Shown: positions 2,399 to 56,293 of the stretch, in pieces | Layout of the letters: each line of letters opens with the position of its first letter | How positions within the stretch are numbered: the first letter of the stretch is position 1 | Virus record (IMG/VR): IMGVR_UViG_3300027908_000023 | Location: 6,369 to 70,368 of that record | Length of the DNA: 64,000 bases | Strand: one strand, 5' to 3' | Origin: a virus | Position numbers and translations under genes: made by a program | The notes under the pieces: generated by a model | Told to the model about the DNA's origin: nothing | Database searches by the model: none | The model's input: the letters and a program-made list of their open reading frames with translations, nothing else

Positions 2399-2492
2399 CG
2401 CTACTCCGATACTTGGGGTTTGAGCCACGGTTTCCGCGTGTCAACGTCGGCCTCTCTATCTACCATCTTGTTCGCTCGCTGTCTAGCGACAT

Positions 2493-2756
2493 TTAACCGT
2501 CACCGAAGATTTTCCACGCGGCAAGATGCTCAGCGTCGGCACTGTCCATCGTCGTGACACCATGACGCTCCTGCCAGACACCGCAGCAGGCTGACCAGCA
2601 AACACAATCCTTGACCTCGCCATAGCGGCAATCGCGAACATCCCGGCATCCATCACACCTGCCAGCCACGATGGCAGTACCGTCCGGCATGTGGAGATGA
2701 CCTCCATAGACGGTCGGCGGATGACCACAGTGTATGCAGTTGCGCGTGACGGTCAT
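2493..2756 (-). CDS. Cys-rich hypothetical protein
   Basis: CIHCG..GH.H..AG.C..CR motif shared with ORF 56294-56755. Confidence 0.6.
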   Translation of the reverse strand: MTVTRNCIHCGHPPTVYGGHLHMPDGTAIVAGRCDGCRDVRDCRYGEVKDCVCWSACCGVWQERHGVTTMDSADAEHLAAWKIFGDG

Positions 2757-2946
2757 TCGCCCCTCGCTCGTATCAAGGCGGCTATCTCCAGCGCTACCGC
2801 CTGCTTGGCTTTGCATTCCATGAGCCTCAGCGTGTTGCATTGGCCGGTCAGCCGTCTCTCGTTCTCGACATCGCGCAAGTAGACAAGATTGGCCTCATGG
2901 GCGCACAAGTCGCGCTCTTCCGCAACTGCCTGTTCTGATGGCGTCA

Positions 2947-3195
2947 TCACGCAACTCCCCTTCGACGAATCGCGGACGCGATGTCGTACTTGGTTCCGTA
3001 GAGTTCTCCGTCCCGACCGCAGTTGGAGCATGTCGGCCAGGCATCGCAGTAGACCTTGTGGCTCTCTGCCAGGCTGGCGCATGCCTCGCGTTCCTCCGCG
3101 ATGGCTGCCTCCACGATGCCGATGATGGTTTCCTCGCCGGGCTTCTCGCAGCCATACTCGTCGAACAACATCGTGACACGTTCTCGGGCTGTCAT
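2947..3195 (-). CDS. hypothetical phage protein (EEREACA motif)
   Basis: AIAEEREACA..IASAIR pattern common in phage small proteins; a similar motif occurs in the adjacent ORF ending at 2753. Confidence 0.6.
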   Translation of the reverse strand: MTARERVTMLFDEYGCEKPGEETIIGIVEAAIAEEREACASLAESHKVYCDAWPTCSNCGRDGELYGTKYDIASAIRRRGVA

Positions 3196-3593
3196 TGCTT
3201 GTCCTCCACACCGTTGACCAGCCGTGCCAACTCGTCGCGATAGGCGATGGCGTCAGCCTCAGTGTCGAAGCGGATCGGCTTGGTCCGCGTATCGTCCAGC
3301 CTCACGTCAACCTCATAGTAGGTCGGCCCCGGCAATCCTTCTGAGTCATCTATGCTGATCGTGCGGACATCCTCCGGCCGTATCCAGTCGCCGTTCCGTA
3401 ACTGGATGAGCCGCGCCGGATTCTCTTTCGGCCGATTGAGCAATCCCTTGACGACCTCGACCTGGCTCGCTAAGAGTTCTTGAGGGGCGTCGTTGCCATG
3501 CTTGCCGAAATATTCCCTGATCAGTCCGTAGGCCGCGAAGTCTCTCAGGTAGGCCAGCAGGGTGTTGATCTCGTTTCTTTCATGGCTGTTCAT
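3192..3593 (-). CDS. hypothetical phage protein
   Basis: 133 aa ORF with ATGA overlaps. Confidence 0.65.
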   Translation of the reverse strand: MNSHERNEINTLLAYLRDFAAYGLIREYFGKHGNDAPQELLASQVEVVKGLLNRPKENPARLIQLRNGDWIRPEDVRTISIDDSEGLPGPTYYEVDVRLDDTRTKPIRFDTEADAIAYRDELARLVNGVEDKQ

Positions 3594-3997
3594 CGACTTC
3601 CACCTCCTCGTACACCTTCACGATCGCCTTGCGTTTCTGCTCCGCTTCCCATACTGCCGCAATGCCGAAAATCTCCTGCCCGGGATAGATCCTGCCCGTG
3701 GCATCGCGCGGATAATACCACCAGCCAAGATGCTGTCGCCAGCCTCTATCACGGAGAATCTTCTGCCTGGTCACGGGTTGTTTCCCGGCGACTTCACCTG
3801 ATCGGCCAGATTGGAAGCTCCAATCAACAAGTGGGCAAGTTCCCACCAGTCACGCCAGGCTTCGTTGTGTTCAGCGGCAAGACATTCCTGCTGCCATTGA
3901 ACCATGTAGGTCAGCGAATCGAGGACAGCCGGCAAGCCGAAATCGCGAACCAAAGGGCTGAGCCTTCTGGTCAAGTCAGGATTGTTGTCATGAGCCA

Positions 3998-4486
3998 TCA
4001 CGCTTCCTCCTCGACCCCGCAATGAATGCCACACCCCGTATCCCGACAGCCACCCTGACCACCGACGGCACGCGCCGCCTCGGAGGCACGCAGCGCGGCA
4101 GCATCGCTGATCTGGCTGAGTTCATGGAACCCATGCACAGAGTAACCGATGAGTTGCGCGAACTGTTCCTGATCGGCCTGGGGGAACTTGAGCCGATGCG
4201 CCGCGATGGCCAGCGTATTGAGATCGCATTGCCAACCGTTACAGGCACAGTGGAAAAGGTGCCGAACCACCGCGTTGCAGCGCTCGGGATGATCTAGATC
4301 CGCACCGATCAAGGCACGAAACTGCACCGAGTCCTCATCCGGGAAGTAGAGGCGTGCAATGTCACCGAGATCGCACTTGCGACCCGCGCTGGCCTCCTCG
4401 ACGACATGCTGAACAATGGCATTGCCACGGAAGCGGGCACGGCCGTTGGCGTCGAGGTAGACTGGTTGCATGGGATGCTTCGTCAT
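3998..4486 (-). CDS. hypothetical phage protein with an internally duplicated core
   Basis: MTKHPMQP start; two NA(I/V)V..CDL..FP..D..QF..LIG units. Confidence 0.7.
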   Translation of the reverse strand: MTKHPMQPVYLDANGRARFRGNAIVQHVVEEASAGRKCDLGDIARLYFPDEDSVQFRALIGADLDHPERCNAVVRHLFHCACNGWQCDLNTLAIAAHRLKFPQADQEQFAQLIGYSVHGFHELSQISDAAALRASEAARAVGGQGGCRDTGCGIHCGVEEEA

Positions 4487-5121
4487 CGGGTATTTTCCTT
4501 GGTAATTGTAGGCTACACATGCCGTTGCGTGATCTCGCGCACCCGCCGGCACGTCGGGCAACTGGCCTCAAAGGTCAGCTCGTCGATCTTGTCCAGCGCC
4601 TCGCGCGCCTCGAACAGTCGCGGCTTCTCGTCGCGCTTGGATGTCGAGAAGAACTCCTCGACATCCTCGGCGGTCTTGCCTGTCCGCTCCGCTTCGGCGG
4701 CGCACAGGCGAGCGAATGCCTCGGTGTCCAGCATGTGGTGTCGCAGGTCGGCATCGAGCGGGATGCGCTTGAGCACGTAGAGCACGGCGGATTGCGCCGT
4801 GGTCAGGGTAGGCGGAATGATGATTTCTTCGTCACGCATGATTGTTACTCCTGTACTTTCTTTCTGCCCCCAACGGGCTTCCTCAACCGATAACCGAAAC
4901 TGACGTGAAAGCACACCCGGCACGCCTCGCAGCGGAGACTGCCACGCACCCGCGCCGCCGGTCCACCGCAGTAGGGGCAGAACGCCACCTTGCCAGGTGG
5001 AGTCAGGAACAGAGGGCGGTCTGTGGTAGGCGTCAACTCATGTTGCTGCTCAGTCATGCTTTGCCTCCACGGAGTTATTCGTCGCTCGCCGGCCGGGATT
5101 TAATCCGCGCCTTGATTTTGC

Positions 5122-5403
5122 TCACCACTCCTTGTATGCCGGTGGAAGGTTCGCCTTGAGCCATTCGTCATCAACCTCCCAACCGTCATCATCCAGCGTG
5201 AACGGGATGCCGGCCAGCCTGAGAATCGTCGGTGTATCGCTGCTGGTCGTCGGATGACTGCCATCGGTCAACACGGCCAGCAATGCCCTGATCTGCCCGC
5301 TGACGTGGTTGATGTGGAAACTGTTACAGGAGTCCGTACAGGCGATGATTCTGGCGACGAGCAGCGCCTTGATCTGTGGTTCGGTCAGCATGGTTACTCC
5401 CAC
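5122..5403 (-). CDS. hypothetical phage protein
   Basis: Co-oriented ORF in the gene chain. Confidence 0.55.
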   Translation of the reverse strand: MGVTMLTEPQIKALLVARIIACTDSCNSFHINHVSGQIRALLAVLTDGSHPTTSSDTPTILRLAGIPFTLDDDGWEVDDEWLKANLPPAYKEW

Positions 5404-6206: not shown

Positions 6207-6650
6207 CTAGCGCTTTTTGAGATCGAAGGATTCCATCGTCTGCCGGCCGGACTTTAGAGCATCGCCGATCATGGCGAGCCTGGCCTCGTACATGATCTCG
6301 AACAGGGTTCTTGCCTTGGCACCGTTTTTCTTGGCCTTGTGCCAGGCAAGCAACATCTCCTGTTCGCAAAAACGCCGGCCGTCCCAATCCTGGCAGTAGC
6401 GAAACTCTGGATGGTCGCTGAACAAGGCATACAGATCGATGCGCGGGAAGCCTTCCACCTTCATGCCGTCGAACTGAGGTTCGGCTTCGCCCGTCTCAAC
6501 GATGCGATAACTGACAACCTTCTGCGACTCCTCATCGTTGGCATGGTAGACACCGCAATAGTCGCAGGCCCAGCCGGTCTGAATCTTAACGGACGGCATC
6601 GGTTTGCCGGTCCGGGGATGGAATCGTGGCTCCTGGCCGAAGACTTTCAT
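6207..6650 (-). CDS. hypothetical protein with CxxC motif
   Basis: GGAGG SD; ends in a TAG that overlaps the next SD. Confidence 0.7.
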   Translation of the reverse strand: MKVFGQEPRFHPRTGKPMPSVKIQTGWACDYCGVYHANDEESQKVVSYRIVETGEAEPQFDGMKVEGFPRIDLYALFSDHPEFRYCQDWDGRRFCEQEMLLAWHKAKKNGAKARTLFEIMYEARLAMIGDALKSGRQTMESFDLKKR

Positions 6651-7244: not shown

Positions 7245-7247
7245 GGG

Positions 7248-8712: not shown

Positions 8713-9179
8713 GGGACTTTTCCTTTCAGGTCCGGCAACCGGCCGGAGCGGTCAGAGGAGTTGTGTTCCCTCTGGAGAGTAATTCGTCGCTCGCGAGCCG
8801 TCATTTTGACCAGCCGGAAAAATATGCCTGGCGATAGCGCTCGCGCAGGCCGATGTCCTTCATCGTCTGCCTCCAACGGCATCGTTGTCATATAGATCCG
8901 CCCCGCCACGGAGGCGAGGTAATCCTCTGCCATCTTCCGATCCGCCGCGTAGGCTTGCGCGGCCAGGCTGGCATCGCGGGCCACTTCTAGCCGATAGTCA
9001 CGGCTAAAGAGCATCTCCACCATCGTCAGGTCAATGCCGGCCTGGCTGTCCTCCAGCCACGCCTCCAGAAGTCGCCTGAACAACCCTGGCGGGACAAAGT
9101 GAAGGCGCTTCGTTGATCGGCCATAGCCGACGACGAACGTGATGGTCTTTCTGGTTGTGTCCTTGATGCGCAGCATCAT
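8709..9179 (-). CDS. hypothetical phage protein
   Basis: Start moved to MMLRIK; ATGA overlaps. Confidence 0.55.
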   Translation of the reverse strand: MMLRIKDTTRKTITFVVGYGRSTKRLHFVPPGLFRRLLEAWLEDSQAGIDLTMVEMLFSRDYRLEVARDASLAAQAYAADRKMAEDYLASVAGRIYMTTMPLEADDEGHRPARALSPGIFFRLVKMTARERRITLQREHNSSDRSGRLPDLKGKVP

Positions 9180-14208: not shown

Positions 14209-14286
14209 GTTTGTTTCCTCCGGGCGATTGCTCCTACCTTAGTTATTCGCTGCTCACGAGCGAATCTTTGGGCGATGGTTGTTTTT

Positions 14287-14670
14287 TCATCTCGCCAGCA
14301 ACGCAACCCCATCAGCAGATCCAAGTACGGCCGGACGGTTGCGATGGTCCACGGTCAGCCGCGCCTCGGGAAACTTTTCCACGAAGTCCGCGACGGCAAG
14401 CCACTTCGCCTTGACTCGCCCGCACTCGTCTTCCGTGAACGTCTCAACTTGTTTCCATCTGCTTCCTGCCAGCCGTGGCAGCACCTCGAAGCGCTCCACC
14501 TTGGCTCGCTTGGCCTCCTGATAGGCCGCGATGCTGGCGTCCAGGTCGGCCTGCGCTTTTGCATCGCGCTAGGCCTGTCCGGCCGCATTGCCGCTTGGCC
14601 GATCTGTTCCGTCATCGCGCGCCTGGGCGTCCGCCGCGATGCTACGCTGTCCGCCGATTCCGAGAGACAT
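14287..14670 (-). pseudogene. 128-codon ORF interrupted by one in-frame TAG (14569-14571)
   Basis: GAGGAG SD and ATG after promoter 14710; ..AAGQA*RDAKAQADLDASIAAYQEAKRAKVERFE.. continues in frame. Confidence 0.6.
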
Positions 14671-15035
14671 GATTTGCTCCTCTGGTTGCTGGTCTTGGCC
14701 TCTGTAGAGTAGTTCGCTGGCCGGGAGTCTCCATTTGATCAGCCAGCGAATTTCCTCAACACCAGTGCCCACACTTTCCGCACTTCGGCACCATGAGAGA
14801 CAGCAGAGAATAGTCATGGCTGCCGCATCGCGAACAGGTGAACGGTGAAGGTATCTCCTCCACTTCGACACGGTATTGCCCGGCAAGCTGCCGCGCCAGG
14901 TCGCGATCAACGGCGACGCGCCGGCCTTGATCGCGACTCCACATCGGCTCGCCCTCGTAATCCTTGCCGGCGTACCAAATCCGTCCCTCGGGAAATTCCC
15001 GCCAGACATAGTATCGGTCCATAGCCTGGCCTCCA

Positions 15036-15563: not shown

Positions 15564-16088
15564 GGACTATTAACGGCGGGGCGGCCGATCTGTCCGGGTT
15601 TGCTGTTACCTTGGCTCGGTTTCCTGATGAGCAGCCATCGCAAAACCAGCCATCGTGCGGGCGCGCTCAAGGCTCTGGTGATAAAGTCCTCGCGCGGCCA
15701 ATTCGCCAAGGCGTTCCGTCAGGCGAGCCAGCGCGGCCCAATCGCCGGCCTCGACGGCGCCAAGGATGCGAACCGTGACGAGTTGGCTGGCTTCGGCCTG
15801 GATGGATTGGCTGGCAGTGGTCATCGTGGCTCCTTTGGGGATGGATCTACCATGTAATTCGCCGGCCAACCGTGGATATTTAACCACTCTCGGAAAATTT
15901 CCGCACTGCCTCCTTGCCGGCCTCCGTCAGTTCATGCTCCCACGTCAGCAACCCGCGCTTGACCAGCGCCCGCACGGTGCCGTCCAGCCCGCCATAGTCG
16001 CTTTGACTCCGGCAATGGTAACTGATCGATCGTCCCTTGAAGACGTTCACCAGCGCTCGCAACATGGAGGGAGAGAGCTTGTTGGCCA

Positions 16089-16500: not shown

Positions 16501-17797
16501 CGGTTACTCCCCTTCAGATGGCCGATCAACTCCGCCACGCTACGAAACTCTCCCAGCTCCCAGGACGCCTCATCCTCCTCGACCCACTGATTGAGAATCA
16601 GTCGCCGGCCAGCAATCTGCACATCGCGATTGCCGCTGAGGAACACGCCGGCATCCGCCGCATCATCGCGTTCCGAATGGCTCAACACAGCGATTCCGGC
16701 AGCGGATAGGCAAGCGGCGAGGTTCTTGGCGGTCATGATCGAGGCTCCCTTGTGGTTTGCTTTCATCCCGTCCATCGTTATTCGCTGCTCACGTCCCGGC
16801 ATTTAACCCGGCACCGATTATTTTTCAAGGCAAAATGAACAACCAAAAGAGCAAGAGAGCCACAAGCGCGACACCGAGCAAGCGAAGTTCCATCGTCTTG
16901 TCTTCCGGCACGGGAGAATCCAGACAATCACGGCAGACACGGGCACCATCGTCACTCTCGTAAAGCTCATCGCTGTCAAGACCGCAGATGTCGCAGCTGG
17001 CTCGATAGGGAGTTGTCATGATTGGATTCTCCTTCACGCTGGCCGATAAACCCGTGCCGATACGCCGGTCATCACGATACGATCCGTCTCCCGGATCGGC
17101 TCCGCTGCCAGGTCACGCTTGCCGCGCGGTCGTTCTGTAACGTGCCGGCCGTCGTCTGTCCAGCCCAGGAAGTGCGGGCACGGCACCTGGGCGTCGGCCG
17201 GGCAGAACGGACACTGGAAGCCAGTGACATACAGGTCGCTCATCTGTTTGCCTCGCTTTCGTGGGCGGTTCTTGCGCCGGCGATGGCCTCACCTGAGCGC
17301 CTCACGTTCGGCTCGTCGTCGCCTTCCACGTCGCGCATTGATGCTCCAAACGCAGCGAACAACAGCCCCAGCAGCATGGCAATCACCAGAACAACTGCCA
17401 TGCCGATATACCAGACGACAATCAGTTTCTTGAGCATGATTCCTCTCTGGGCCGATGATAGCCTGCCGCACCGTGCAGCAGACACATTAACTATCCTACG
17501 CCATGTGCCACGCCATCTCCTGCTCTGCGGGCGTCAACACGGCCCACAGAGCGTCAAGCTCATCAATCCACGCTTGATTGTGGCCGATGAAGTTGTGCTG
17601 CATCCACAGATAGGTCAAGAGGTTGTCGGACATGGTTCGTTCTCCGTTGGGGTTGCTCGTCTCTCCAGAGAGTATTTCGTCGCTCGCGCCGGCTCCTTTG
17701 AACGAAATCGAGAAATCTTTCGTGATCGCTACCACGCTGGTGCCGTGGCTGTTGTGCAGGGTCGGCATGGGGGACTCTTGGGTTGAGATTGTGCCAA

Positions 17798-17819: not shown

Positions 17820-18100
17820 CATTGTGATTGACGCTCACGAGCCAGCCGGCATCAGGCTTCGTGCGGCCTCATGCATCGCAACGGCACGGTCATGGTAGAG
17901 CCAATAGAGACGCGATTCGTATTCCTCAGCGTCGCGCTTGGCCTCCCATGTGCTCGCCAGGTCGATCAGTTGCTTGATCTGAAAATCCACGGTTGCTTGT
18001 GTCATCTGAATCTCCACAAGTGGTTCCATCGGTTCTGTCTACAGTGTTATTCGCTGGTGCCGACCCGATATTTAGATCGGCACCAGGATTATTTCCGCCA

Positions 18101-18397: not shown

Positions 18398-19278
18398 TGC
18401 GATTCCTCTTGCGGGGTTGTGGTTGTGTCTCTGTATGGTTATTCGCCGGCCGGACCGGCGGATTTAACCGCCGGGCGAAGAATTTCCTCCATCAATGCAT
18501 TTCATATAACTGCCGGCCAGCATCCCAGGTCCAGCAGCCGTCGCGGGTCCAGAGCGGTTGGAACCATTCCCATTCGCTCACCAGCCCGAGCGGATTGGAC
18601 TCGCAGGGTTCCGGCCAGGCGAAGCCACGCTTGAGATTCCAGTTCATCTGGGCGTCTGTCATGGTTCGGGTGCTGGTTGCCGGCATGGTTTCTCTCCCGT
18701 GTGGTTGTGTCTGTCTCATCTATAGTATACTTCGTTGGCTGTCTACCGACATTTGAACCGCCGCTCACTTTTTCTCGAAAAGATTCCGCCCTCCGGCCTC
18801 TTGACCGGCCGCAAGAAACAACTCGCACAGTTCCATCCTGACCGCCTGCGCGGCCATCACGGATAGCTTGCCACGGTCCGGCGGGTTGCTACCGCTGTCG
18901 TCTCCACCGACCGCAAGCCAGGCCGCGTAACGGACCGCGTAGGCTTGCTTCTTGGCATTGCGGATGCGGGCGATGTAGCCTGTGATGGTGGTCATGAGTC
19001 TTTTCTCCCGTGTTCTATCTCCAGCGTGATGAACGCCCAGCACACGACCAGCATGCCGGCCTCGTCCAGCCAACCGCATGACCAGCGCTTCGCCGGAGCG
19101 AGCGTAACGCTCAGGCGCGGTGTTACCAGCGAGAGCGTGAGGAGCGGGCCATACCAGCGAATCGCGTTTGCCAGGGTGGTCAGCATGGGTGGTTCTCCGG
19201 GGCGGTTGTGTTCTCTACTAGGTTATTCGCTGCCGGCGCGGCCTTATTTGAACCGCGCCGGGATTTTCCTCCCGTTTC

Positions 19279-19476: not shown

Positions 19477-19614
19477 GCCTGTCTCCCGTGATGGTTGTGG
19501 TTACTTCTACTAGGTAATTCGCTGGCCGAAAGCCGGGATTTGATTCGCTGGCAAGGAATTCGGGAGATTCCATGCGCGCCGGTTTGACCGATTGGGGAGA
19601 GATGGGGTAGAAAG

Positions 19615-22740: not shown

Positions 22741-22944
22741 CGTCTCGATCTCCTCTTTGTGTCGCCGGCACGCGGCCGGGACTGGTCTTGGATCTCTGTA
22801 ATGTTATTCGCCGGACCGGAGGCGGGATTTAATCCACCTCCGGATTTTCTTCTCGTCATGCCGCCATCGCATCCGCCAGGAGGCGTTCCGCCGTCGCGTT
22901 GCGGCTGGCACCTCCTCCCATCATGGCCCAGCAATCGGGGCCGA

Positions 22945-24545: not shown

Positions 24546-25580
24546 GGTGATTGCCCTCTTGTGGTTGTGATTGGCCTTACACAAGAGTATTCGCCGGAGC
24601 GGTCCCGGCATTTAATCGGAACCATTGTTTTTTCCATCAATCGCGCAGGAACTTTTCCGCTGCCCGCCTGGCACCGCTGTAGGTTCGGTACGCCGCGCTG
24701 CACGTCCGGCATCCTCGGAACCACATTGCCGGGCTGTCCTGGTCGCTCGGATCGCTCGGGCTCATATAGCCGACCCAGACGTGAAAGCAACCATCGTAAT
24801 GGCTGATGATCGCCTTGCGGCAATTGCAGGTCAGTTCGACCGATCCAGAGCCGAGAACCGATGTTGCGATCTTCGCCGTGTTCGCCTTGCGAGCGACGGC
24901 CAGCAATTCCAGGTCATCCATCGTCATTCCCTCCCATGCCTGGCGCGGCCAATTGTTGATTGATGCTCAGGATTGCCAGCAGACAATTCCGACCCGGGCC
25001 AATGATTCCCAGCAAGGCTTTATCCGGCGCCGATTCCAGCAGAGCCGTTAACCGGCCGATGGCCGATAGCGGAATCGTTGACATGCTGGCAAACATGGTG
25101 GTGATTTCGTCCAGCTTGCTCAAGATGGCTGCGTTCATGTGGTGGTCCTCGGTCTGGGGATGGGGGCGATTCGTGGTTGTTACGCGCTCGCCGGCCAGCG
25201 CGGCCTGCCAGGCATCCTCGCTACTGTCCGTGTTGCCCTGTGCGCCCATCTGGATCGCCAGGGCTTCCAGGTAGCCCATACTCCAGCCGGTTGCGTAGAC
25301 GGAATCGAAGTGTTGCGCCGACACGTCTTCCGGACAGGTTAGCGTCATGGTGCCGTGAGCGAAGCCGAAGTTGTACTCCGCGTTGTCACAGCCCTCGCGG
25401 GCCGTCTTGGCCGCATCGTGGTAGCCCCAATTGAAACGGACGCGCGGCTCAGTCTTGTGGATCGTTTCCTTCATGGTCTTCATCGGCTGGATTCCTTGGA
25501 GGTTGTTTGCTCGTCTCATCACAATAGGTAATTCGCCATCCATCCGGCACCATTTAAGCGCCGGATGGATTTTGTTGAGA

Positions 25581-26114: not shown

Positions 26115-26572
26115 TGGTGAATCTCCTGTCAGCGGGGTTTGTTGATTGCTCTCTGACAGGTTGTTCGCCGGTTGTCGGCGGACATTTAATCGGTCTGTTG
26201 TTTTCTCTCGAAATCGCTCACGCGCCGGATCACCCAGCCACGGACACAATCCCGCCGCGCGGCCCGCTGGGTCGCGTAGCGCTTGGCCTCCGCGATGTCA
26301 TGGGTGAATCCACCAGAGCGGATTAACAGGCCAAGGCATTCCAGGACGTACATGGGTGGGGTTCCTCATGATGGTTTTTTCGGGAATAGCTTGGCCAACT
26401 TTCGATCCAGTCCACCCAGCGTATCGGCCTTCGCCAGATCGACGACAGGCTCGCCGGTTCCGTTGCCACCCAGAAAGGCGTGGTACTTGCGGTCATGCCG
26501 GCCATAGCCGGTGCGGATGATGTTGACGTTATGCTTCTTCTGGAGTTGCTCTCTGGTCATCATCGTGGTTCC

Positions 26573-26806: not shown

Positions 26807-27099
26807 GGTTGCTGCCTCCCCGGTTCGGCTCGCTGGTCGCGCCGGCTGGCCTCGTCGCGCTGCTGTTGATTGATGCTCTGGTCGATGGCGGCATACCAGG
26901 CGTCTTGAGCTACCCGGCGATGCCGGGCGATGCGTTCATGGCCTTCGCGGAACAACTCACCATCTGGCCGGCAGGTCTTGGCACGGTAGGCTTCCCACCA
27001 TTCATTGAACGTCATTGCTTGGCCTCCATCACTGGTTCCTTGATCCGTCTCTACCATGTTGTTCGCTGGCCGATCAATGGCATTTAACCCGCGCCAGGA

Positions 27100-27429
27100 T
27101 CATCCCTTGGATTCTCTCCAGTTGAGCCATTGCTCCATCCAGTCCGCCATCAGCCTGACCTCGTTGCGGACAATCTCCGCTGGCGCGCCCAGCGCCATTA
27201 ACCTCACCATGCGCACCAGCCCATCGCCGATCTTCTGTACCAGATCATCAGCGCGGATGCCAGCAACCGATTCCTCGACCGGTTCACCGAAGTATTCTTC
27301 GTCCATCTGGCCCAGAGTCAGCAGCGATAGCGCTTCCTCTGGGTTCTCTGCTTCGACGTGATTGGTTCCGTCAGAGGCAACCCAGACGTTGCCCTGACGG
27401 GTCACCGTGTAGTGATCGGGTTCGCTCAT
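27100..27429 (-). CDS. hypothetical phage protein
   Basis: GGAGG SD. Confidence 0.65.
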   Translation of the reverse strand: MSEPDHYTVTRQGNVWVASDGTNHVEAENPEEALSLLTLGQMDEEYFGEPVEESVAGIRADDLVQKIGDGLVRMVRLMALGAPAEIVRNEVRLMADWMEQWLNWRESKG

Positions 27430-27959: not shown

Positions 27960-28238
27960 CGTGGAATCTCCATCGTCGGGGTTAGTGGTTGGCCTGTCTG
28001 TAGAGTAGTTCGTCGGTTGTCGCCGGACATTTTACCGGCCAGCAGATTTTTTCCTAGCCCGCCAGCGCGGCCCGGTATCTCGCGATCCTGTAAGCAAGCC
28101 TCTCGGCCAGTTGCTCGCGCCAGAGATGCCAGGCAGAGCGCTCCGGATGGTCCAGGTATCCGGCCAACAGGGCTTCTGCTTCATCGGCATGGCCTCTGGT
28201 GAGGCGTTCGTCGGCACTGGCAAGGAGTAGGTCAAGGC

Positions 28239-28733: not shown

Positions 28734-29524
28734 CTCAATTGGTTATTCGCTGCCCGGTTCGTAAGATTTAATCCACCATTGAGATTTCGCCGACGGTTTC
28801 CCGATGGATAAACTCCGCGCACGATTCCGCGACATACTTCCCCAGATCGGTGGCGCCGTTGCGGTCGAGCAAGCCCTTGACGGTCAGGGAATCGATGGTT
28901 CGGCAGGCGACCTTTGCTGTCGCGGTTCTCCAGGCACCCGGACCGCCAAGATGATAGAGCCGCATGGCATCAGCCTCTTTGCGCGTGAGGCGCAGCATGC
29001 CAGGCCAGCCGAACAGTTTGGTTTCAAGAACGGGAATCAGGATCACGACGGCGGACTTATTGGCTTTCATGGAGGAAACTCCGGGCGAAGGTTGTGGGTT
29101 GTCTATGGAGTAATTCGCTGGCCGATCCGGGAGATTTGATCGGCCAGCGAAAAATCTCAATAGCCGCCGACCGGCTCGACGCGATTGCGGCACGACCAGC
29201 CCTTGTAATCCTTGATTCTCGGGACGATGATTTCCCGACCGGCCGCATAGGGGTATTCCGGTTGGCCGGTCGGCACATTCTCGCTCAGCATGACACGGAT
29301 CGATTTGCCGTTGATCTTCGCGACCGTGCCGATGCCATCATAGCCGGTTCCGCAATTCGTCCAGACAACCCGAACCGGTTGGCCGATCACAAGAGTTGTC
29401 TCGAAGTCTACAACGGTTCGATATTGTTCGCCGGTCATTGTTCTATTCCTCTGCTGTCGGGCGACAAGAGGTAATTCGCTCGCGGCCGGTTGGCATTTAG
29501 ACCGCGAGCGAATAATCTCCGTCA

Positions 29525-29917: not shown

Positions 29918-29997
29918 GGGACTTTCTCCGATACAGGGTTGGTTGATCTCTATGGTGTTATTCGCTCCCTGTCGCCGGACATTTAGACCAGCAACTA

Positions 29998-30306
29998 TTA
30001 TTTTTCGTTGGCATTATGGCCGACGCATCCCGACACTTGCCGGAGGATTTCCGCCATGTATCGCCTCTCGTCGAAGTCGGCCAGAACATCGGGCCGCGTC
30101 CAGAAGCGTCCGCCGACCTGGACGAACATGGAGGCCACCTCCCGCCCATCGTCCAGAGAGCACAATAGTTCACCCAGCGCGAAGGCTTGGCCGTGCCAGC
30201 GTAAGGGCGGGACGGCTCCAAGCATGGCATGGTATCTGGATTCCGCGATCTCTTCCCACGGGTTAGCGGCCAGTTCTTCAACGGTGTGGGGATATTGAAT
30301 CTTCAT
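29998..30306 (-). CDS. hypothetical phage protein
   Basis: GAGG SD; co-oriented. Confidence 0.6.
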   Translation of the reverse strand: MKIQYPHTVEELAANPWEEIAESRYHAMLGAVPPLRWHGQAFALGELLCSLDDGREVASMFVQVGGRFWTRPDVLADFDERRYMAEILRQVSGCVGHNANEK

Positions 30307-30954: not shown

Positions 30955-32220
30955 GGTTAGTTCTCCTCTCCGGCCAGCCTCTTGGCTTCCGGATACTGGT
31001 GTCCCAGGTTCATGTATTCAACAGCAGACAGCGGGCGATAGAGGGCAATGGACCGTAACGCGCTCATGCGCTGCTCGCGCCAGTAGGCGAACTCGGGAAG
31101 CCCGCTCGTCCGGGCGCACCAGTCATTGAGTTGCTCAAGGCGCGATTCCAGTTGCTCCGGCATGGCGTTGGCTCCTTTGGGGCGACGGGTTGCTCTGTAG
31201 TGTTATTCGTCGGCATCGTGCCGGCATTTAACCGCGTCCACCGATTCTCCGATCTGAGGCGGACAGGTCGGGCAATAATGCCTGTCGCCGATATGGACAT
31301 AGGAGTATGGGTCGCGCGTCCATGAATTCGGCAGCGTCGCGCCGCAGCCGGCGCACAACTCCGCTCTCATCATCGGGCCGATAGTCACGCCCGCAACCAG
31401 ATATTGAGGATCGCCATAGCTTTCCTCATGCTTGCCCGTGAAGGCGTAGAGTTGTCCAGGCTGGCCGTTCGTGACATAGCGAATCGCCGACAGGCCGGTT
31501 ACTTCTTCGACGAACGCCATTGCCATCTGAAGCGTTTCGCGGCGGACAAACAGCGGGTTGCGGCTGGTCTTGCTGCGATGGATGATGACGATGAAAGGGC
31601 AGTAGTTCGGATGGGTGTCTTGCTTCTGGAGGCGCTGAGCCTCATTGTCGATGTTGATGATCATGGCTTTTTTCCGTATGGTTGTCGGTTGTCTCTGTAT
31701 GGTTATTCGCTCCCCATCCACGGATATTTACCGGTGATACTTCAGAAGCGATCCGTCCGCCAGCGTGATCTGCGTTCCACGGCGAATCATCTCCTGCCCG
31801 TCCGATCCGGCCAGCACATAATAGGTCGGCTCCCAGGTGGCGGACTTCTGCTGAACCTCCACGATCTCATAGATTTCGCTGCTGATGACCAGGGCACCGG
31901 ATCGCAGCTTTACCTTGTCGCCGACGCCATAGAGGCCAAGTGTCATGGCTGAATCTCCTGATGATTGTTTCGTGTTCTCTACATGGTTATTCGCTCGCCA
32001 TCCATCCGCATTTAACCCGGTCGCAGTTTTTCCATTGAGCGCTTCCAATCCCTGAAGCAATCCTGCCAGCTATCCGCCTCATACCCGGGCGGTTGCCGGT
32101 CGATCCAGGCGACCCAGCGGGCTCGCGCTTCGGCGATCTCTGCATAGCTATCGGTGCCGAACAGCCGGGCTTCTGTGCTACCGGCAAGCGTGATGGCCTC
32201 GTTGATGAGGCGTAGTTTTG

Positions 32221-34267: not shown

Positions 34268-34326
34268 CCTCCGACACAGAGCTATTCGCTGCCGGTCGGA
34301 GGATCTTTGCGCCGGTAGGATTTTTC

Positions 34327-35154
34327 TCATGCGGCCAGTGCGGTTTCCGCCGGCACTTCTGATGTTTCCGGTTCGCTGTCGGCCATGCGCCGCAACTCTT
34401 CCCCGAACTCGATCTCTCTCCGCCATTCGTCCCATCCGGTCAGATTCTCAACGGCCTTCTCGCCGCGCTGCCGTGCTGCCAGGGCATCGACACCAGCGCC
34501 AACCGGAGCCGCGTCATCGTTGGCGCGCCAGGCATAAGGCATCAGCGCTGCAACGGCGCGTTGCGTCCCGTTCGTGGCACGAACCACCATCGGCGCACCG
34601 TTGGCGTGAATCTCAATCGTCACTGCCGTGCCGTCGCCGGAGAAGTGCTTCAGAACCTCCAGCAGTTCGGCCAGCAGATCGGCGCTGACGTGCTGCGCGG
34701 CGACCGGTTCGCCTTTGGGCAGGACGTGATCCGTGTTCGGATAGCGCCCGTCCACGTTGCGCGGTTGTCGGACAAGGTTTGATTCCAGATCCGTGGTTGC
34801 CAGGGTTGAGACTGCTTCTCCCATGACGCAAGCCACGCTCTGGAGCGCCGGCTTGCCCTTCTTCGGGCATTCCTTGAAGGCGCGCTCGAATTCCTTTCCG
34901 GGAATTAGTGCGGTTGTCTGCCCGTTCGGCGCGGCATCCAGAGCCGGGATGGAGGGATACTCGGCAGGGTTATCGACGTTGGGCCCGGATACCCTGATGA
35001 GCCTCTTGCCGTCCGTCGCTTCGACCACATAGCCGGCCGGTTGGGTTTCCGTGGCGGGTGTCTCGGAAACCTTTACACCCGTCAAGGCGAAACGTGCCGA
35101 TTCGCTGGCCGTGATCTTGACCAGGGAAGCGAGATTGCGAGGAAGAAGAAGCAT
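34327..35154 (-). CDS. truncated DNA polymerase III beta-clamp-like protein
   Basis: RFALTGV, EATDGKRL, DGRYPNTDHVLP resemble DnaN domains II-III. Confidence 0.65.
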   Translation of the reverse strand: MLLLPRNLASLVKITASESARFALTGVKVSETPATETQPAGYVVEATDGKRLIRVSGPNVDNPAEYPSIPALDAAPNGQTTALIPGKEFERAFKECPKKGKPALQSVACVMGEAVSTLATTDLESNLVRQPRNVDGRYPNTDHVLPKGEPVAAQHVSADLLAELLEVLKHFSGDGTAVTIEIHANGAPMVVRATNGTQRAVAALMPYAWRANDDAAPVGAGVDALAARQRGEKAVENLTGWDEWRREIEFGEELRRMADSEPETSEVPAETALAA

Positions 35155-35256
35155 GGTCGTGGTCCTTTCGAGCGATGGTTGTGAAAGCTGTCTGTATGGT
35201 TATTCGTTGGCGGGCGATTGATATTTAGATCACATGGGGATTTTTCTCCTGCCCGG

Positions 35257-35970: not shown

Positions 35971-36066
35971 GGAGGCTTTCCTTTCAGTGTGGTTGGCTCT
36001 GGTTGTCTGTATGGTTGTTCGCCGGCTGTCCCGCGACATTTAGACGCGGGACGGGATTTTTCTAGA

Positions 36067-36564: not shown

Positions 36565-36725
36565 TCAGGATGGCGATTGAGACTAGTATGGTCAGCATGG
36601 CTGATTCCTTTCGCATGGTGTTTTGTCTGACCATTGTTATTCGCTGACCATCCAGGATTATTGAGACGAGAGACGAAAAATCCCAGCGGCTTCCTTTCCG
36701 CCGGGATCGCGCTGGTATTCAAGTC

Positions 36726-37374: not shown

Positions 37375-38496
37375 CTATGCAACATGACTTGTCTCCGGGA
37401 CGTTGTTGGTGTTGATGCTGGCCTCTTCCTCGAATGGAAGTTCCATCATCTGGAAAGTAGTTCGTCGCGGGGCGATGTATATTGCTTCCTCTTCGTGGAT
37501 TTCTTCTGGATTGTTGCTTGTGGCCTCCATGCTGGCCGGAGTGCTCACGGCCGGTTCCTCGCTCGCCAGTTCCGCGCCGTCGTCGAAGCTGATTCTTCGC
37601 TTCGGTGCCGTCACGATGTTCTGGTCAATCTGCTGCGAGAGCGTCTCAATACCGGCCTTGATGTCCTGGCGGAGTTGCTCGTTGGTTCGCAGCGCCTGCG
37701 AAGTGACACCAGAAACCAGCCCTTCCGCTTGCTTCACCAGCGCATCCAGTTCGGGATTTGAACGCACCGAAAGACTCTGGAATCTCCCGAAGAATTCCCG
37801 GAAATTATCAATAGCGGTTGAAGAGAGAATCTTCCGCCCCTCCGGCCCATCGGTGAGCCTCTCCTGAAGATGGTTGACCAGCTTGGCGAATTCTTCCGCG
37901 AACATACTCTCTGCCATCTGTACGGCCTGATCGAAGCGTGCCGCGATGCGCTGGCGCTCCTGCTCGTAAAGAGCCGGATTGAGGTTCTTGAGGTAATCCG
38001 GTGGCTCGACGCTGGGGTATTCCCATTCGATGGCGAAAAGATTGCTCACGGTTTCCGGGTAATCCTTGGCATCAAAGAGCCGACCGAGACGGACGGCGGC
38101 TTGCTCTCTGACCGTGGCATAGTGGTCCGCGAAGTCGGCAACCGCGCCGGCCAGTTGAGAGCGAAACTCCGTCATCTGGGCATCGAATTCGGCGACTTGC
38201 TGCTGACGCAAGAGCCGGATGCCAGGTTCCGGGAAGGGCAGCGTAGAGTCTTTCCAGAAGGTCCGGATTCTGGAGCGGAGCGTGGTCAAGACCTTGTATA
38301 CCTTGTCCTTGGTATTGATGAGCTTCTTCGATGCGCTGATGGCATCATCACTGGCCCCGAAGGTATCGGCGGCTTCATGGGCATGGTCAGCAGAAAGGCG
38401 CTTCGTGGTCCCCATCCACGTAAAGCTGATCCTCACCGCTGCCGCGTTGACGCGAAGTTCCTGCGCGGCATTGTTGTTCGTGGTGTTCTCGGACAT
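37375..38496 (-). CDS. DUF3150-like protein
   Basis: AVRISFTWMG..SKKLI..STLPFPEPGIRL..IEWEYPSVEPP pattern, recalled from planctomycete mobile elements. Confidence 0.6.
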   Translation of the reverse strand: MSENTTNNNAAQELRVNAAAVRISFTWMGTTKRLSADHAHEAADTFGASDDAISASKKLINTKDKVYKVLTTLRSRIRTFWKDSTLPFPEPGIRLLRQQQVAEFDAQMTEFRSQLAGAVADFADHYATVREQAAVRLGRLFDAKDYPETVSNLFAIEWEYPSVEPPDYLKNLNPALYEQERQRIAARFDQAVQMAESMFAEEFAKLVNHLQERLTDGPEGRKILSSTAIDNFREFFGRFQSLSVRSNPELDALVKQAEGLVSGVTSQALRTNEQLRQDIKAGIETLSQQIDQNIVTAPKRRISFDDGAELASEEPAVSTPASMEATSNNPEEIHEEEAIYIAPRRTTFQMMELPFEEEASINTNNVPETSHVA

Positions 38497-40124: not shown

Positions 40125-40222
40125 GGCTTTCTCCCTGGATCTTGCCGTCTTGCGGCGTGGTTGATTGTTCTATAGATGTATTCGCTGGCTGTCCGCCGAC
40201 ATTTAAGCGATAGAGCGAAATA

Positions 40223-40627
40223 TCATATTTTGCCGGCGCGAACAAGGGCAGTTGTGGCGCTGATATGCTTGCAATGTCCGTGAGCCTCGAAGCCCTTGCA
40301 GTCGCAGCACGCCGGCCCCTCATCGACGATGGTTTCTCCTTCCGGGCTGGTCATCACCGTGCCACCCGGACCGCCGATGTTGGTGTGATAGACCTCGCCA
40401 CCCTGGGCGAAGAACTTCGTCCAGCGCACGGCGAAGCCCCAATCGCTGGGGATGACGCAAAGCCAGTAGAGCGTAGACTTCTCGGAGCGCGGTCCGCGCT
40501 CCAGGATCTCGACCATGCACTCCTGGCCGCGCGAACGGCGCGTCAAGAGGCGGATCACGCGGGATTTCGGCTTGCGGCCGGACTTGGCCTTGACGGGATG
40601 GGTGTCGGAACCGTAGGTTACGGTCAT
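40223..40627 (-). CDS. SWIM zinc-finger protein
   Basis: CDCKGFEAHGHCKH. Confidence 0.75.
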   Translation of the reverse strand: MTVTYGSDTHPVKAKSGRKPKSRVIRLLTRRSRGQECMVEILERGPRSEKSTLYWLCVIPSDWGFAVRWTKFFAQGGEVYHTNIGGPGGTVMTSPEGETIVDEGPACCDCKGFEAHGHCKHISATTALVRAGKI

Positions 40628-40757
40628 GGTGAACGAGCCTCCAAGAAGGTTGGTTTACCGATCCGGCCGGTGTTACGAGCACTGGCCGGATCATTGTTTT
40701 CTCTACATGGTTATTCGCTGGCCGGTAGCGATTATTTAATCCAGCCAGTAGCTTTTC

Positions 40758-42464: not shown

Positions 42465-42784
42465 GGTTGTTTTCCTGATCTCAAAAGCGGCGACATGAGG
42501 TTATTCGCCGCACCGCCATTTAGATTTAAGCGCCGGTACGGTTTTTCTTTCGCCGGCATGGATGCGGATAGCTTCCCGGCTCGAAGACATCCACCTCCTG
42601 GATCGGCCGCAACAGCGCGGCCGAATCGCAATGACACGGTTGCCCGGCCAGATTATTACCGCCGAAACTCTCCTGGCAACCGCAACGGTCGCAGAAAAAC
42701 ACCCGAGCCGAGAATTCAGCCCACTCTTCCGCGAAGGTCCTCGGGACAACAATGTGGTCGTCTTCCATGTTCGCTCTCCCTCTC

Positions 42785-45993: not shown

Positions 45994-46199
45994 CTGAAGA
46001 TCCCTTAGCCAAGTTCTGCGTTGGCTTCGCATTGCCAGACAAGGCGGCTGGCTCGCTTCGTTTGTCTTTCTATCAAGCTATTCGCTGGTCGTCAAGGGAG
46101 ATTTGAGCGGAAGAGGAGATTTTTCAGAAAAGCGCTGGTTCGTCTTTGCGAACTTGAAGCGACGAAATTCGTCGTTTCAAGACGTGGCCGGTTGGCCTA

Positions 46200-53385: not shown

Positions 53386-53391
53386 TGATGC

Positions 53392-53703
53392 TCAGGAAGC
53401 GAGTGCCTCCAACCTCCGTTCATGCTCATCGTCTTCGCCGTCCAGCGCTACCGTGGCGCACTCTTGATGCTGCCTGGCCCAACCGGCAAACAGGCATCGA
53501 CCATCCGCGAGCCATCTCCTTGATTGCCTGGTATGGCCGACCATGCCCTCTAGCGTCACACTTGCCAGGTGATAACCGAGCGGTGTGGTCGAGAGGATGA
53601 GCCAGACGAACGGCAGGTCGCCGAAGTGCGCCACGGCCAGCCGGCGCAGGGCTGGTTGAGCGTTGTTGAAGTCGGTGGCAGTGAGATCGTGCATGGCGGA
53701 CAA
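53392..53703 (-). CDS. hypothetical protein
   Basis: Co-oriented ORF after an AT-rich intergenic region. Confidence 0.5.
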   Translation of the reverse strand: MSAMHDLTATDFNNAQPALRRLAVAHFGDLPFVWLILSTTPLGYHLASVTLEGMVGHTRQSRRWLADGRCLFAGWARQHQECATVALDGEDDEHERRLEALAS

Positions 53704-54745
53704 TCACAGTGAAACTAATTTGCGTTTTACGCGCCATCGGCGCAATAGCTTGTTCTGATTGTCTGGGAAGAAGTGGGGCGATAAAAGATAAAATGTGATC
53801 AAAACGTGGTAGTGATATGTCGGAAAGGTTGGATTGTAGCGGATGGGCAAAGTTTAACGCTGGTCTGCGTTGAAATCAGGCCACAGCGATTCGAGCCGGC
53901 CTTCATTCTCGCGCTGCTTGAGTTCCTCCAGCATGCGCTGTTCCTGTTCCTTCATGGCGCGAATGATCTCATCAGGCACCAGGGTCGTGATGTCGATCAT
54001 CTGATGAAGGACTTCACGCATCTCGCGATTGCGAGTCTGCACGGCTGTAAAGTATTCCGGTCTGGTGGCTTCAAGGACAAGCAAGCGCTCCCGGCGGCGC
54101 CGCCAGGCGGTGTTGATTTCGTCTCTGGTCATGGTATCATCTCCTTGATCAACCGGGCAGCACACCATGATACTCGTCCCGCCACTTCTTGCTGAGCTTC
54201 TCGCGAATCAGATACAGGTCATCGAAAATCCCTCGCAATCGCTCCAGGTATTCGCGCTGGCTCGGCTCGCCATAACCCGTCTTGATCAGCAGTTCAAGCA
54301 ACGGGTCATGGCCGCCTTCAAGGCGAACAAGAAACTGCGCGAAGGTTTCATCGGCTCTCGGCCTGGGATGCGCCGGCGCTTCCTGATAGGCATCGTACAC
54401 GACTCGCGGCTTGGCCTTGCGGCCACGTCCGGTCTTCGGCATGGCTGTTTCTCCTGAATGACGATTACTATATGGTTCAACATTCAGACTCACGATGCAT
54501 CGCGGCATCGAGCAACGCTTTCCCGTGGCGCTTGTGGCAGCCGTCGATGTACCGGTGGATCATCCCGCGAAGCGTGTTGACCTCAACCTCCGTCAGTTCG
54601 CCAATCGCGTCCGCCGCGCTATCGTGGCTTGGCCGCAATTTACTGTAGTGACCGGCGGCGAAACTGATGTAGACATTGACACGTCCAGTCTGAGTATGAG
54701 ATTTCATCGAGACTACTCCCGGGCGAAACAGGGGCGACTTCTTGG

Positions 54746-55591
54746 TTACACTCCTACTAGCTCCATCTCTTCTACCACGACCGGCAGCTTCCCCACTTGC
54801 AAGGTCACGACTTCGTAATCCGCCAGCGTCAACTGCTCCAGCGACTTCACATGATGGAGATCGCATACCCGGCTGATGCTGATTTTCCGCGTCTGGCACA
54901 ACCGCTTGATAAAGTGTACCTGATCGTCCGTGATAATGCTTGCCGGATCGGGCTTCGCTTCCACGGCATGACCGTTGCCATTGTGGCCGTTCGTGCCGTT
55001 GGCATGGTGCCCGTTGCCGGTTCCGGAAAGCCTCGGTGTCTGGCTAAACTGCCGCTTCCTCGGATCGTAGTCGTACCAGTCTGCCTTGATCCGGTAGAGA
55101 TAGCGGCCGATGCCGAACTTCACGGCCGCGCGTTTGTGGGCATCGGAGAACGCTGCCTTGCGGCGGTCCCCCTCATCGTCCTGCTGGGAAGGGCTACCGA
55201 CATCCTGCTTCTCGATCCATTCTCCACCGATGCGCACCCGCAATCGGCAGATCACGCTGCCCATGATGACCTCTTCTCCAAGGATCATCTCGTCGCAATC
55301 GTTGCCGTCCTTGTCCTTGACTGTCCTGCCAGTCTTCTGCATGGCCGGCACGCGAGCATCGGGAAGAACCTCATATGAGGTTTCCCAGCCGCCAATGCCG
55401 AGAACTTCGTCAAGGCGATCCTCAACGGTGCGGACATCTACATAGGCAAAAGCGAGAGCGCGATTGCCAACGGTCTTGCCGGGAAGAAACTTCACGTCCT
55501 CAATGTCGAACGGTGCGGCCAGCGCGGCAGCGATGGCCTGGACATCAATGGTGGTCTGCGTTGCAGTAGTCCCGGTGGTTGCTGTCGTCAT
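54746..55591 (-). CDS. Rad52/Rad22-family single-strand annealing protein
   Basis: LAAPF..AYVD.R.V..RLDEV.G..GW..KAAFSDA.KRAAVKFGIGRYLY; follows promoter 55635. Confidence 0.85.
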   Translation of the reverse strand: MTTATTGTTATQTTIDVQAIAAALAAPFDIEDVKFLPGKTVGNRALAFAYVDVRTVEDRLDEVLGIGGWETSYEVLPDARVPAMQKTGRTVKDKDGNDCDEMILGEEVIMGSVICRLRVRIGGEWIEKQDVGSPSQQDDEGDRRKAAFSDAHKRAAVKFGIGRYLYRIKADWYDYDPRKRQFSQTPRLSGTGNGHHANGTNGHNGNGHAVEAKPDPASIITDDQVHFIKRLCQTRKISISRVCDLHHVKSLEQLTLADYEVVTLQVGKLPVVVEEMELVGV

Positions 55592-56293
55592 GGCGTTTAT
55601 CCCCTGGAAGGCGATGCTTCATCTCTTCACAGGGTTATTCGCCGTTAGCCGACCGGGATTTAATCCGCCAGGAAGTTTTTGTCGATTTTCAAGATCCTCT
55701 GGTGCATCCGCTCGATGACCTCGAAGAACAGAACATCATCGTAGGCCAGCGCATGCCCGCGAGCCTTCCGCTCATGGTTGGCTGCTTCCATCGCCATTGC
55801 CTCAATCCTGGCAGCGACGATGGCTTCCTCGATGGCCAGTTCCTTCATACGCTGATCATGGTCGCTCATCGTCTTTCTCCGCCTTCATGGTTACCTCTAC
55901 CAGCGCCACGTCCTTGAGGTAAAACCATACCTTCCCGTCTCCGGGCGCGCCGTTATCTGCTGCCGTGCCCGTTCAACGACCTCAGAGAATGTATCCGTGC
56001 CAAAGGCTCGCTCATAGCCGTGGCCGACAAGTTCCTGATTCACGGCAGCCAGCGCAGACATCTCAATGCAGGCCAACAATATGAGCGAATGCATCATCTC
56101 AGCAACTCATCTATGCTCATCTGCTCCAGCACAGCGATTCTCCGTTGCCGGATGAGATCAGCCGCAAAGGCCAACAGAACAGCGCCGGGAACCTCGAACG
56201 ACTCATCGCAGCGCAGGTCGGAAATCTCGACCGTGCCCGAATAGTCGCCGTTGGATGTGAAGGTAAAGTCACCGTAGGTCCTGGTGTGCATTG

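Follow-up and report, generated by a model that had tools for sequence, protein, structure and literature searches.

A repeated promoter-like motif in a probable Gemmataceae phage and its putative reading by an alternative host sigma factor

The phage proteins SPO1 gp28 and gp33/34, T4 gp55 and phiEco32 gp36 are reportedly sigma factors with promoter sets of their own. Among cellular systems, the sigma-28 family (FliA/SigD/WhiG, group 3) reads promoters of the type TAAAG(TTT)-N11-GCCGATAA, and the Escherichia coli version, TAAAGTTT-N11-GCCGATAA, has 16 nt from TAAAG to CGA. To our knowledge, hardly any promoters or sigma regulons have been mapped in Planctomycetota, and planctomycete phages are nearly unknown. 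In the sigma-28 open complex of Pseudomonas the two boxes lie at (-36)TCTAAAG(-30) and (-15)GCCGATAA(-8), with A-11 flipped out (PMC12784957), and in Actinomycetota the paralogues of sigma-28 retain the central CGA while the rest varies, e.g. GCCGAACT (PMC12871210). The iron-starvation box read by PvdS, an extracytoplasmic function (ECF) sigma of Pseudomonas, is TAAAT-N16-CGT (PMC2235872), and SigI promoters follow AAA-N13-14-CGWA (PMC4711584). Here, a set of near-identical intergenic repeats is described in a 64,000-nt stretch of phage DNA (the window, bases 6369-70368 of the 98,536-bp IMG/VR viral record IMGVR_UViG_3300027908_000023). From sequence comparison, each copy is probably a promoter for host RNA polymerase carrying an alternative, non-housekeeping sigma.

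A weight matrix seeded from TAAA(T/G)-N16-CGAA and iterated over the whole 98.5-kb record with a threshold of 12 settled on 37 sites with scores of 24-56 bits, every one of them on the minus strand, whereas the plus strand had none; across 20 Markov shuffles the best score was 9.4 and no site reached the threshold. The strict pattern AAK-N16-CGAATAA gave 18 matches against 0.10 expected, 17 of them on the minus strand. Thirty-six of the 37 sites lie inside the window, with the T of TAAAT spanning 2495 to 55662, and the 37th, a weaker site, lies outside it at window-equivalent position 66059. AA(T/G)-N16-CGAA is present at every site with an invariant 16-nt spacing; the -35 box is TAAAT or CAAAT in 30 of the 37 copies, and the A at positions 2-3 never changes. 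The phage consensus is gAAAAAt-N~10-G.TTAAAT-N14-(A/G)GCGAATAAC-N4-TAGAGA. In the information profile, an A-tract 14-18 nt upstream of the T (-18 to -14, up to 1.3 bits) is followed by the G.TTAAAT box, a GC-rich spacer without conservation, (A/G)GCGAATAAC, and a conserved T-A-G-A five bases downstream. Since two unlike boxes are held at a fixed 16-nt spacing across a variable spacer, the arrangement points to sigma-type recognition. The original prediction had described 36 co-oriented minus-strand copies between 2468 and 55663, an invariant CGAA preceded by 16 nt and AA(T/G), an upstream A-tract, ACAACC-type leaders before the Shine-Dalgarno (SD) sequence and a gap at the terminase/portal block; the count, range, orientation and A-tract were all recovered by the weight matrix, the leaders are real, and zero sites fall between 46105 and 55662.

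The placement of the sites also fits promoters. Nearly all are intergenic, most lying 10-30 nt past the preceding stop codon, and at several the TAA of TAAAT doubles as the stop codon of the preceding gene. When the A of TAGAGA is taken as the predicted start, it lies 24-47 nt before an SD and ATG at 23 sites, and most of the others are within 80 nt. Neighbouring copies lie a median of ~900 bp apart, usually with one or two genes for each. This regular placement of intergenic sites at a fixed distance before SD and ATG bears out the earlier suggestion of promoter-plus-gene cassettes.

Of around 200 open reading frames (ORFs) called in the record, 197 are minus-strand, and the genome is transcribed from high towards low coordinates. 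The initial block, at record 98-62 kb, encodes DnaB, replication initiators, RecE/Erf/Rad52-type recombination genes, endonuclease VII, methylases and Thg1; it is motif-free and has a few good sigma-70-like sites on the correct strand, e.g. TTGACA-17-TATCAT. The small and large terminase and the portal genes follow, and then ~50 kb of mostly unknown small genes, insertion sequence (IS) elements and TnpB. In this small-gene region the motif is essentially the sole promoter-like signal, and sigma-70-like sites are depleted where the motif occurs, with 4 found by a generic scan against 7.2 expected. The early timing that the original prediction gave to the regulon is at most a possibility: motif copies also precede a Rad52-like gene, an AAA ATPase gene and the operon after the portal gene. 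CheckV places the record at 82% complete, and Pfam and PHROGs recognized no capsid, tail or lysis gene anywhere in the 98.5 kb. The left end of the contig falls inside a DDE transposase fragment, and the assembly was therefore probably broken at an IS copy.

The host is probably a member of the family Gemmataceae (Planctomycetota), judging from gene similarities. The IS transposase inside the phage has its best matches in Planctomycetota/Gemmataceae metagenome-assembled genomes (68-71%), and the closest relatives of the large terminase (TerL), at 50-53%, are prophage-like loci in 4 of 151 Gemmataceae genomes, compared with 37% to isolated phages and 42% to IMG/VR. The contigs with these prophage-like TerL loci (L443-L448; genomes G084, G125 and G052) are motif-free, and no motif was found with the IMG/VR TerL relatives. 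An alphaproteobacterial host, raised by GcrA-like and DUF1419 matches, was dropped as the IS, TerL and motif evidence points to Gemmataceae.

The same signal occurs in the chromosomes of this family. Across 61 Gemmataceae genomes there are 40 occurrences of TAAAT-N16-CGAATNAC and 6 of the reversed control, and two host gene families carry the motif in a conserved position. The first, present in 47 of the 61 genomes, encodes an uncharacterized protein of ~265 aa that combines a single transmembrane helix with a long coiled coil, and for which no Pfam family was found; 25 of 28 genomes have AAAT-N16-CGAA in the 200 nt before this gene, against a background of 0.0037 per equivalent stretch elsewhere in the same loci, and the predicted start falls 58-93 nt before the ATG. 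The second encodes a conserved 143-aa helical protein, with the motif within 200 nt upstream in 17 of 28 genomes (background 0.003-0.004). Genes for LolA-like periplasmic proteins also carry it, as does floA (PF12127) in five or six genomes; elsewhere floA sits behind nfeD in an operon. The host consensus, AAAT-N14-cgGCGAATaAC, equals the phage consensus, and the host copies share the T/A-rich upstream tract and a pyrimidine-purine step at the predicted start. Because the motif is conserved at orthologous host genes, a reader for this promoter appears to exist in uninfected hosts. The original prediction had allowed for either an alternative host sigma or a phage-encoded one, and the conservation of the motif upstream of two host gene families favours the host option.

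Side observations were made around these host copies. The coiled-coil gene (loci L224-L253) is followed by the gene for a conserved, helical, repeat-rich protein of ~417 aa in 25 loci and by a Ser/Thr kinase gene in 9 loci. Pattern counts in one family of Pirellulales were uninformative, being swamped by an unrelated GACGAAT-type repeat. The Pirellulales genomes G070 and G071 hold many dispersed, near-identical copies of TAAATGACGAATGACGAAATTCGAATGAC, an element built of GACGAAT-like units that matches the search pattern by chance and looks like a separate repeat family.

Comparison with the promoters of the likely host separates the motif from two familiar classes. In four of five complete Gemmataceae genomes the 16S rRNA promoters are TTGACA/TTGACT-N17-TAAAGT/TAATAT/TATATT with T-rich UP elements, and the fifth has the weaker TTGTGC-N16-TATTGT. 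Since the rRNA operons of the likely host use TTGACA-N17-TAnAnT, and the phage boxes match the housekeeping TTGACA-N17-TATAAT poorly, the motif is not of the housekeeping type; the idea that it is the housekeeping promoter of an unusual host was ruled out by the same canonical rRNA promoters. The predicted non-sigma-70 class is thus upheld. Flagellin genes were found in 16 of the 61 genomes, with promoters of the form CAAGTT-N13/14-TTCGATAA in the canonical sigma-28 arrangement, and a host flagellar FliA promoter was likewise ruled out, as the flagellin promoters form a distinct class and most genomes are without flagellin.

Among the described alternative classes, the sigma-28 family is close in several respects. 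Both have a TAAA-type -35 box, a distance of 16 nt from TAAA(G/T) to the central CGA and a long -10 box ending in TAA, and, counted from the predicted start, the phage boxes at T-34 to T-30 and C-13 G-12 A-11 fall in the sigma-28 register, so that the predicted sigma-28 resemblance agrees in geometry with the published complex (PMC12784957). They differ in that the phage -10 box is (A/G)GCGAATAAC rather than GCCGATAA, in that CGA is followed by one additional A and lacks the preceding C (6 of 8 bases agree when right-aligned, or the two are equal with a one-base insertion), and in that the phage -35 box ends in T rather than G. The phage genes served are also not flagellar, and the host flagellin promoters (CAAGTT-N14-CGATAA) are a separate class. 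For the predicted ECF resemblance the picture is mixed: the 16-nt spacing agrees, and the -35 pentamer and spacing are identical to those of the PvdS box, but the boxes are AAT and CGA rather than AAC and CGT, a long ATAAC extension is conserved in the motif, the probable host is a planctomycete rather than a pseudomonad, and there is no link to iron genes. The suggested likeness to SigI fails on spacing: both have an A-rich -35 and a CGAA -10 core, but the motif is AAA-N17-CGAA and the SigI spacing is 3-4 nt shorter (AAA-N13-14-CGWA, PMC4711584); SigI is, moreover, confined to Firmicutes. The promoter sets of SPO1, T4 and phiEco32 share with this one the presence of many near-identical, co-oriented, non-sigma-70 promoters; the difference is that no sigma was detected in this contig and that the same promoter is conserved in uninfected hosts.

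A host ECF-type (group 4) sigma, e.g. one for envelope stress that would be switched on by the stress of infection and would turn on the phage genes in its wake, is an unlikely reader. The motif-bearing host genes do have a membrane or envelope character (the transmembrane coiled-coil protein, floA in some genomes and the LolA-like periplasmic proteins), and floA and pspA belong to the regulon of the ECF sigma-W in Bacillus subtilis. Dozens of ECF genes are present in Gemmataceae, and the spacing of AAT-N16-CGA is that of the ECF rule AAC-N16-CGT and nearly reproduces the PvdS box TAAAT-N16-CGT (PMC2235872). However, the -35 box is without the AAC of ECF promoters, the -10 box, with nine bases and ATAAC at its end, exceeds the usual length for ECF promoters and resembles GCCGATAA, and no host ECF gene with a conserved motif upstream was seen at the loci examined, although ECF sigmas usually autoregulate. 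One candidate for an autoregulated host ECF, a gene 120 nt after a motif copy in a single genome, was rejected as a chance occurrence, its orthologues in 28 genomes being without the motif.

Another candidate is found in the sigma-28 family itself. A FliA/WhiG-family sigma, scoring ~250-270 bits and above the curated cut-off of the FliA_WhiG model, is present in 57 of the 61 Gemmataceae genomes; it has regions 2, 3 and 4 and is 80-100% identical across 30 genomes (loci L323-L352). Flagellated Gemmataceae genomes have a second, lower-scoring and more divergent FliA near the flagellar genes. As this sigma is found in 57 of 61 genomes yet flagellin in only 16, the family appears to have a non-flagellar sigma-28 paralogue. 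On the basis of promoter resemblance and distribution, this near-universal FliA/WhiG-like sigma is put forward as the best, if tentative, candidate for the reader, and its conservation would explain how one promoter code could serve phages of 58% and 72% G+C.

Under the preferred reading of a host alternative sigma, each unit would combine a UP-like stretch rich in A, near -51 to -47, with a -35 box (G.T)TAAAT at -34 to -30, a free spacer, and an extended -10 box (A/G)GCGAATAAC with CGA at -13 to -11, and transcription would start at the A of TAGAGA, 5-7 nt after CGAATAAC, giving a short ACAACC-rich leader ahead of the SD and ATG. Placed before ~36 groups of one to a few genes, such units would account for almost all of the transcription in the 53 kb that follow the replication block. 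With the same signal presumably used by Gemmataceae at a small conserved gene set, the phage would most likely need no sigma of its own, and three dozen strong phage copies would compete for a host sigma with a small regulon. The fuller scenario, in which a phage without its own sigma takes over the near-universal non-flagellar sigma-28-family sigma, with its few membrane-associated genes, and floods it with ~37 consensus promoters, is possible but rather less likely than not.

Several points weigh against reading the copies as promoters for a host sigma of this kind. Promoter function and start site are both inferred from sequence, and the assignment of the host rests on moderate similarities (50-71%) together with the shared motif itself. 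A search up to 1.5 kb from the universal FliA/WhiG-like gene turned up no motif, so that this sigma has no direct link to it, and the AAT-N16-CGA geometry would suit ECF promoters equally well. The contig, at ~82% completeness and without recognizable capsid or tail genes, could have lost a phage sigma with its missing part, and many of the small phage proteins are unidentifiable, so that a very divergent sigma could be among them. Further, when all IMG/VR contigs were scanned with the pattern, several copies turned up in exactly one other contig (a control scan with the wrong spacing gave 17 matches, single ones only), and this contig, G001, encodes a 162-aa ECF-like sigma with matches to Sigma70_r2 (1e-12), r4_2 and Sigma70_ECF (L155:2071-2556, minus strand; G001:C1:22071-22556). 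G001 is 93.7 kb long with 72% G+C and ~12 motif copies, most followed by SD and ATG, and shares with the phage its replication module, at 36-42% identity, and a few small proteins.

A sigma encoded by the phage, lying in the missing ~18% or too divergent to be recognized and imitating the specificity of a host sigma, is nevertheless quite unlikely to be the reader. That the sole other multi-copy contig encodes a sigma, that the promoters are highly uniform (~25-30 bits), as is typical of phage-specific promoter sets, that the contig is incomplete, and that the motif-free 62-98 kb block with its sigma-70-like sites would fit an early-to-middle switch all speak for it. Set against this, the sigma search, extended over the rest of the genome, detected none in the 82%-complete record: a six-frame search found no Sigma70_r2 and no T7-type polymerase domain, Pfam and PHROG searches of all 197 called proteins of at least 50 aa found no sigma or polymerase, custom hidden Markov models built from 24 host ECF sigmas and from 30 host FliA-like sigmas had no match, and the G001 sigma as query found no homologue in the 98.5 kb. 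The G001 sigma is itself an orphan: its single relative among 1.84 billion representative proteins is 50% identical, and its identity to host ECFs is only ~30%; no motif lies upstream of its gene, and nothing ties it to the motif. The use of the motif at conserved genes in uninfected hosts, lastly, implies a host reader.

Two candidates for a hidden phage sigma were rejected. The one weak r4_2 match in six frames falls in a 135-aa ORF at window 62193-62600 (Sigma70_r4_2/GcrA), which has only an N-terminal helix-turn-helix and resembles generic phage helix-turn-helix proteins, and a 198-aa protein common to the phage and G001 is instead an HD-domain nucleotidase. As separate observations, the G001 sigma gene lies directly upstream of a homologue of a 123-aa phage protein (record 79919-80290), and a 116-aa protein in the motif-free block (record 80235-80585; L011:10236-10586, minus strand) has a GP67 Pfam match that, at E = 0.054, is too weak to rely on. 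The GP67 family presumably includes a Staphylococcus phage protein that binds region 4 of the host sigma, and a factor aimed at sigma would be of relevance to this phage.

About a third of the phage copies carry an inverted repeat of 7-13 bp that brackets the -35 box with TTAAAT in the loop, one arm lying between the A-tract and the -35 box and the other inside the spacer. Stems of at least 8 bp occur in 11 of the 37 copies, compared with 5.5% of mismatched-flank controls, and read on the plus strand the repeat looks like a hairpin followed by a T-run, as in a terminator. Since most host copies are without the repeat, it does not belong to the promoter code; its possible roles are to mark where the RNA of the upstream cassette has its 3' end, to act as a terminator or insulator for that cassette, or to stop antisense transcription. 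These hairpins and the cassette arrangement of the phage genes could also be taken to mean that the copies are cassette-boundary elements (recombination sites, RNA processing sites or terminators) and not promoters. This is very improbable, given that two thirds of the copies have no hairpin, that the two boxes and not the stems are conserved, and that the geometry of the boxes and the pyrimidine-purine context of the start are those of a promoter. The host copies, moreover, stand at fixed distances upstream of orthologous chromosomal genes without cassette structure, and no Rfam family matches in the window.

The individual copies in the window, all of them minus-strand, are described below in transcriptional order. 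Each range is followed in brackets by the position of the T of TAAAT, the weight-matrix score and, where it was assigned, the distance from the predicted start to the ATG. The first, at 55628-55680 (T 55662; 50.9; SD and ATG at 37 nt), serves the Rad52-like 281-aa gene 55591-54746, which has a Rad52_Rad22 Pfam match. The copy at 46071-46123 (T 46105; 52.6; 78 nt) serves the operon after the portal gene, made up of the 366-aa gene 45993-44893 and three more. It is followed by 42494-42546 (T 42528; 38.7; 30 nt) before the 67-aa gene 42464-42261, 40704-40756 (T 40738; 54.9; 77 nt) before the 134-aa gene 40627-40223, and 40171-40223 (T 40205; 47.0; 47 nt) before the 501-aa AAA ATPase gene 40124-38619, identified by its AAA Pfam match. 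A weaker copy at 37451-37503 (T 37485; 28.6; 66 nt) lies inside the end of a 373-aa gene and serves the 219-aa gene 37385-36726. The site at 36630-36682 (T 36664; 35.8) precedes a short ORF and then the 143-aa gene 36498-36067, and the copies at 36008-36060 (T 36042; 53.2; 38 nt) and 35193-35245 (T 35227; 53.7; 39 nt) precede the 237-aa gene 35970-35257 and the 275-aa gene 35154-34327. The weaker copy at 34275-34327 (T 34309; 31.9) has a CAAAG box and is followed by a TTGACA-type site, without a clear SD and ATG.

Continuing downstream, the copy at 31980-32032 (T 32014; 53.6; 34 nt) serves the 72-aa gene 31946-31728, that at 31696-31748 (T 31730; 30.3) has an ATG ~31 nt downstream with a weak SD, and those at 31196-31248 (T 31230; 40.5; 33 nt) and 29951-30003 (T 29985; 55.4; 34 nt) serve the 68-aa gene 31163-30957 and the 130-aa gene 29917-29525. 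Contiguous 8-bp inverted repeats surround the -35 box in the next two, with 12 pairs in the fold at 29465-29517 (T 29499; 42.8; 27 nt), before the 93-aa gene 29438-29157, and 13 pairs at 29104-29156 (T 29138; 51.3; 34 nt), before the 100-aa gene 29070-28768. The 152-aa gene 28697-28239 is preceded by the copy at 28736-28788 (T 28770; 40.8; 39 nt), the 175-aa gene 27959-27432 by that at 27999-28051 (T 28033; 52.1; 40 nt), the 70-aa gene 27015-26803 by that at 27052-27104 (T 27086; 45.1; 37 nt) and the 145-aa gene 26114-25677 by that at 26154-26206 (T 26188; 52.2; 40 nt). A 13-bp inverted repeat with TTAAAT in the loop is found at 25522-25574 (T 25556; 36.7; 39 nt), upstream of the 189-aa gene 25483-24914, and the copy at 24580-24632 (T 24614; 38.7; 35 nt) precedes the 155-aa gene 24545-24078. 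The top-scoring copy of all, at 22797-22849 (T 22831; 56.3; 57 nt), serves the 114-aa gene 22740-22396 and carries a 10-bp inverted repeat.

Further downstream, the site at 19508-19560 (T 19542; 43.0; 32 nt) precedes the 65-aa gene 19476-19279, that at 19216-19268 (T 19250; 53.7; 30 nt), with a 10-bp inverted repeat, the 64-aa gene 19186-18992, and that at 18721-18773 (T 18755; 48.4; 35 nt) a second 64-aa gene, 18686-18492. The 98-aa gene 18397-18101 has its copy at 18432-18484 (T 18466; 47.4; 35 nt), and the 56-aa gene 18005-17835 at 18040-18092 (T 18074; 49.9; 35 nt), the latter with an 11-bp inverted repeat. A weaker copy with a CAAAG box at 17666-17718 (T 17700; 35.1; 33 nt) precedes the 45-aa ORF 17633-17496. 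Then come 16771-16823 (T 16805; 45.9; 35 nt) before the 79-aa gene 16736-16497, 15848-15900 (T 15882; 51.9; 24 nt) before the 72-aa gene 15824-15606, and 14703-14755 (T 14737; 49.1; 33 nt) before the 33-aa ORF 14670-14569. Another weaker CAAAG copy, at 14236-14288 (T 14270; 26.7), has neither SD and ATG nor an ORF downstream, and ARAGORN called no tRNA in the window, including downstream of this copy. The site at 8773-8825 (T 8807; 42.4; 61 nt) serves the 117-aa gene 8712-8359, which has a homologue in the phage contig G001 (52% identity), and that at 5068-5120 (T 5102; 52.9; 11 nt) the 70-aa gene 5057-4845. The final copy in the direction of transcription is at 2461-2513 (T 2495; 48.9), and the gene it serves is uncertain.

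The phage can be regarded as a natural amplifier of one promoter class, in that boxes, spacing and start context can all be defined from an alignment of its 37 copies, and the same signal could therefore be found at conserved host genes. This provides a testable promoter code for an alternative Gemmataceae sigma and a compact, strong promoter for planctomycete genetics, as well as a putative example of a phage relying on an alternative sigma of its host instead of the housekeeping one. Should the phage indeed take over a host sigma-28-family sigma, the motif would reveal the promoter code, and the first members of the regulon, of a planctomycete sigma that is so far uncharacterized. It would also give the first description of how a planctomycete phage organizes its transcription, and a case in which a lytic-type phage uses an alternative sigma of its host for most of its genome.

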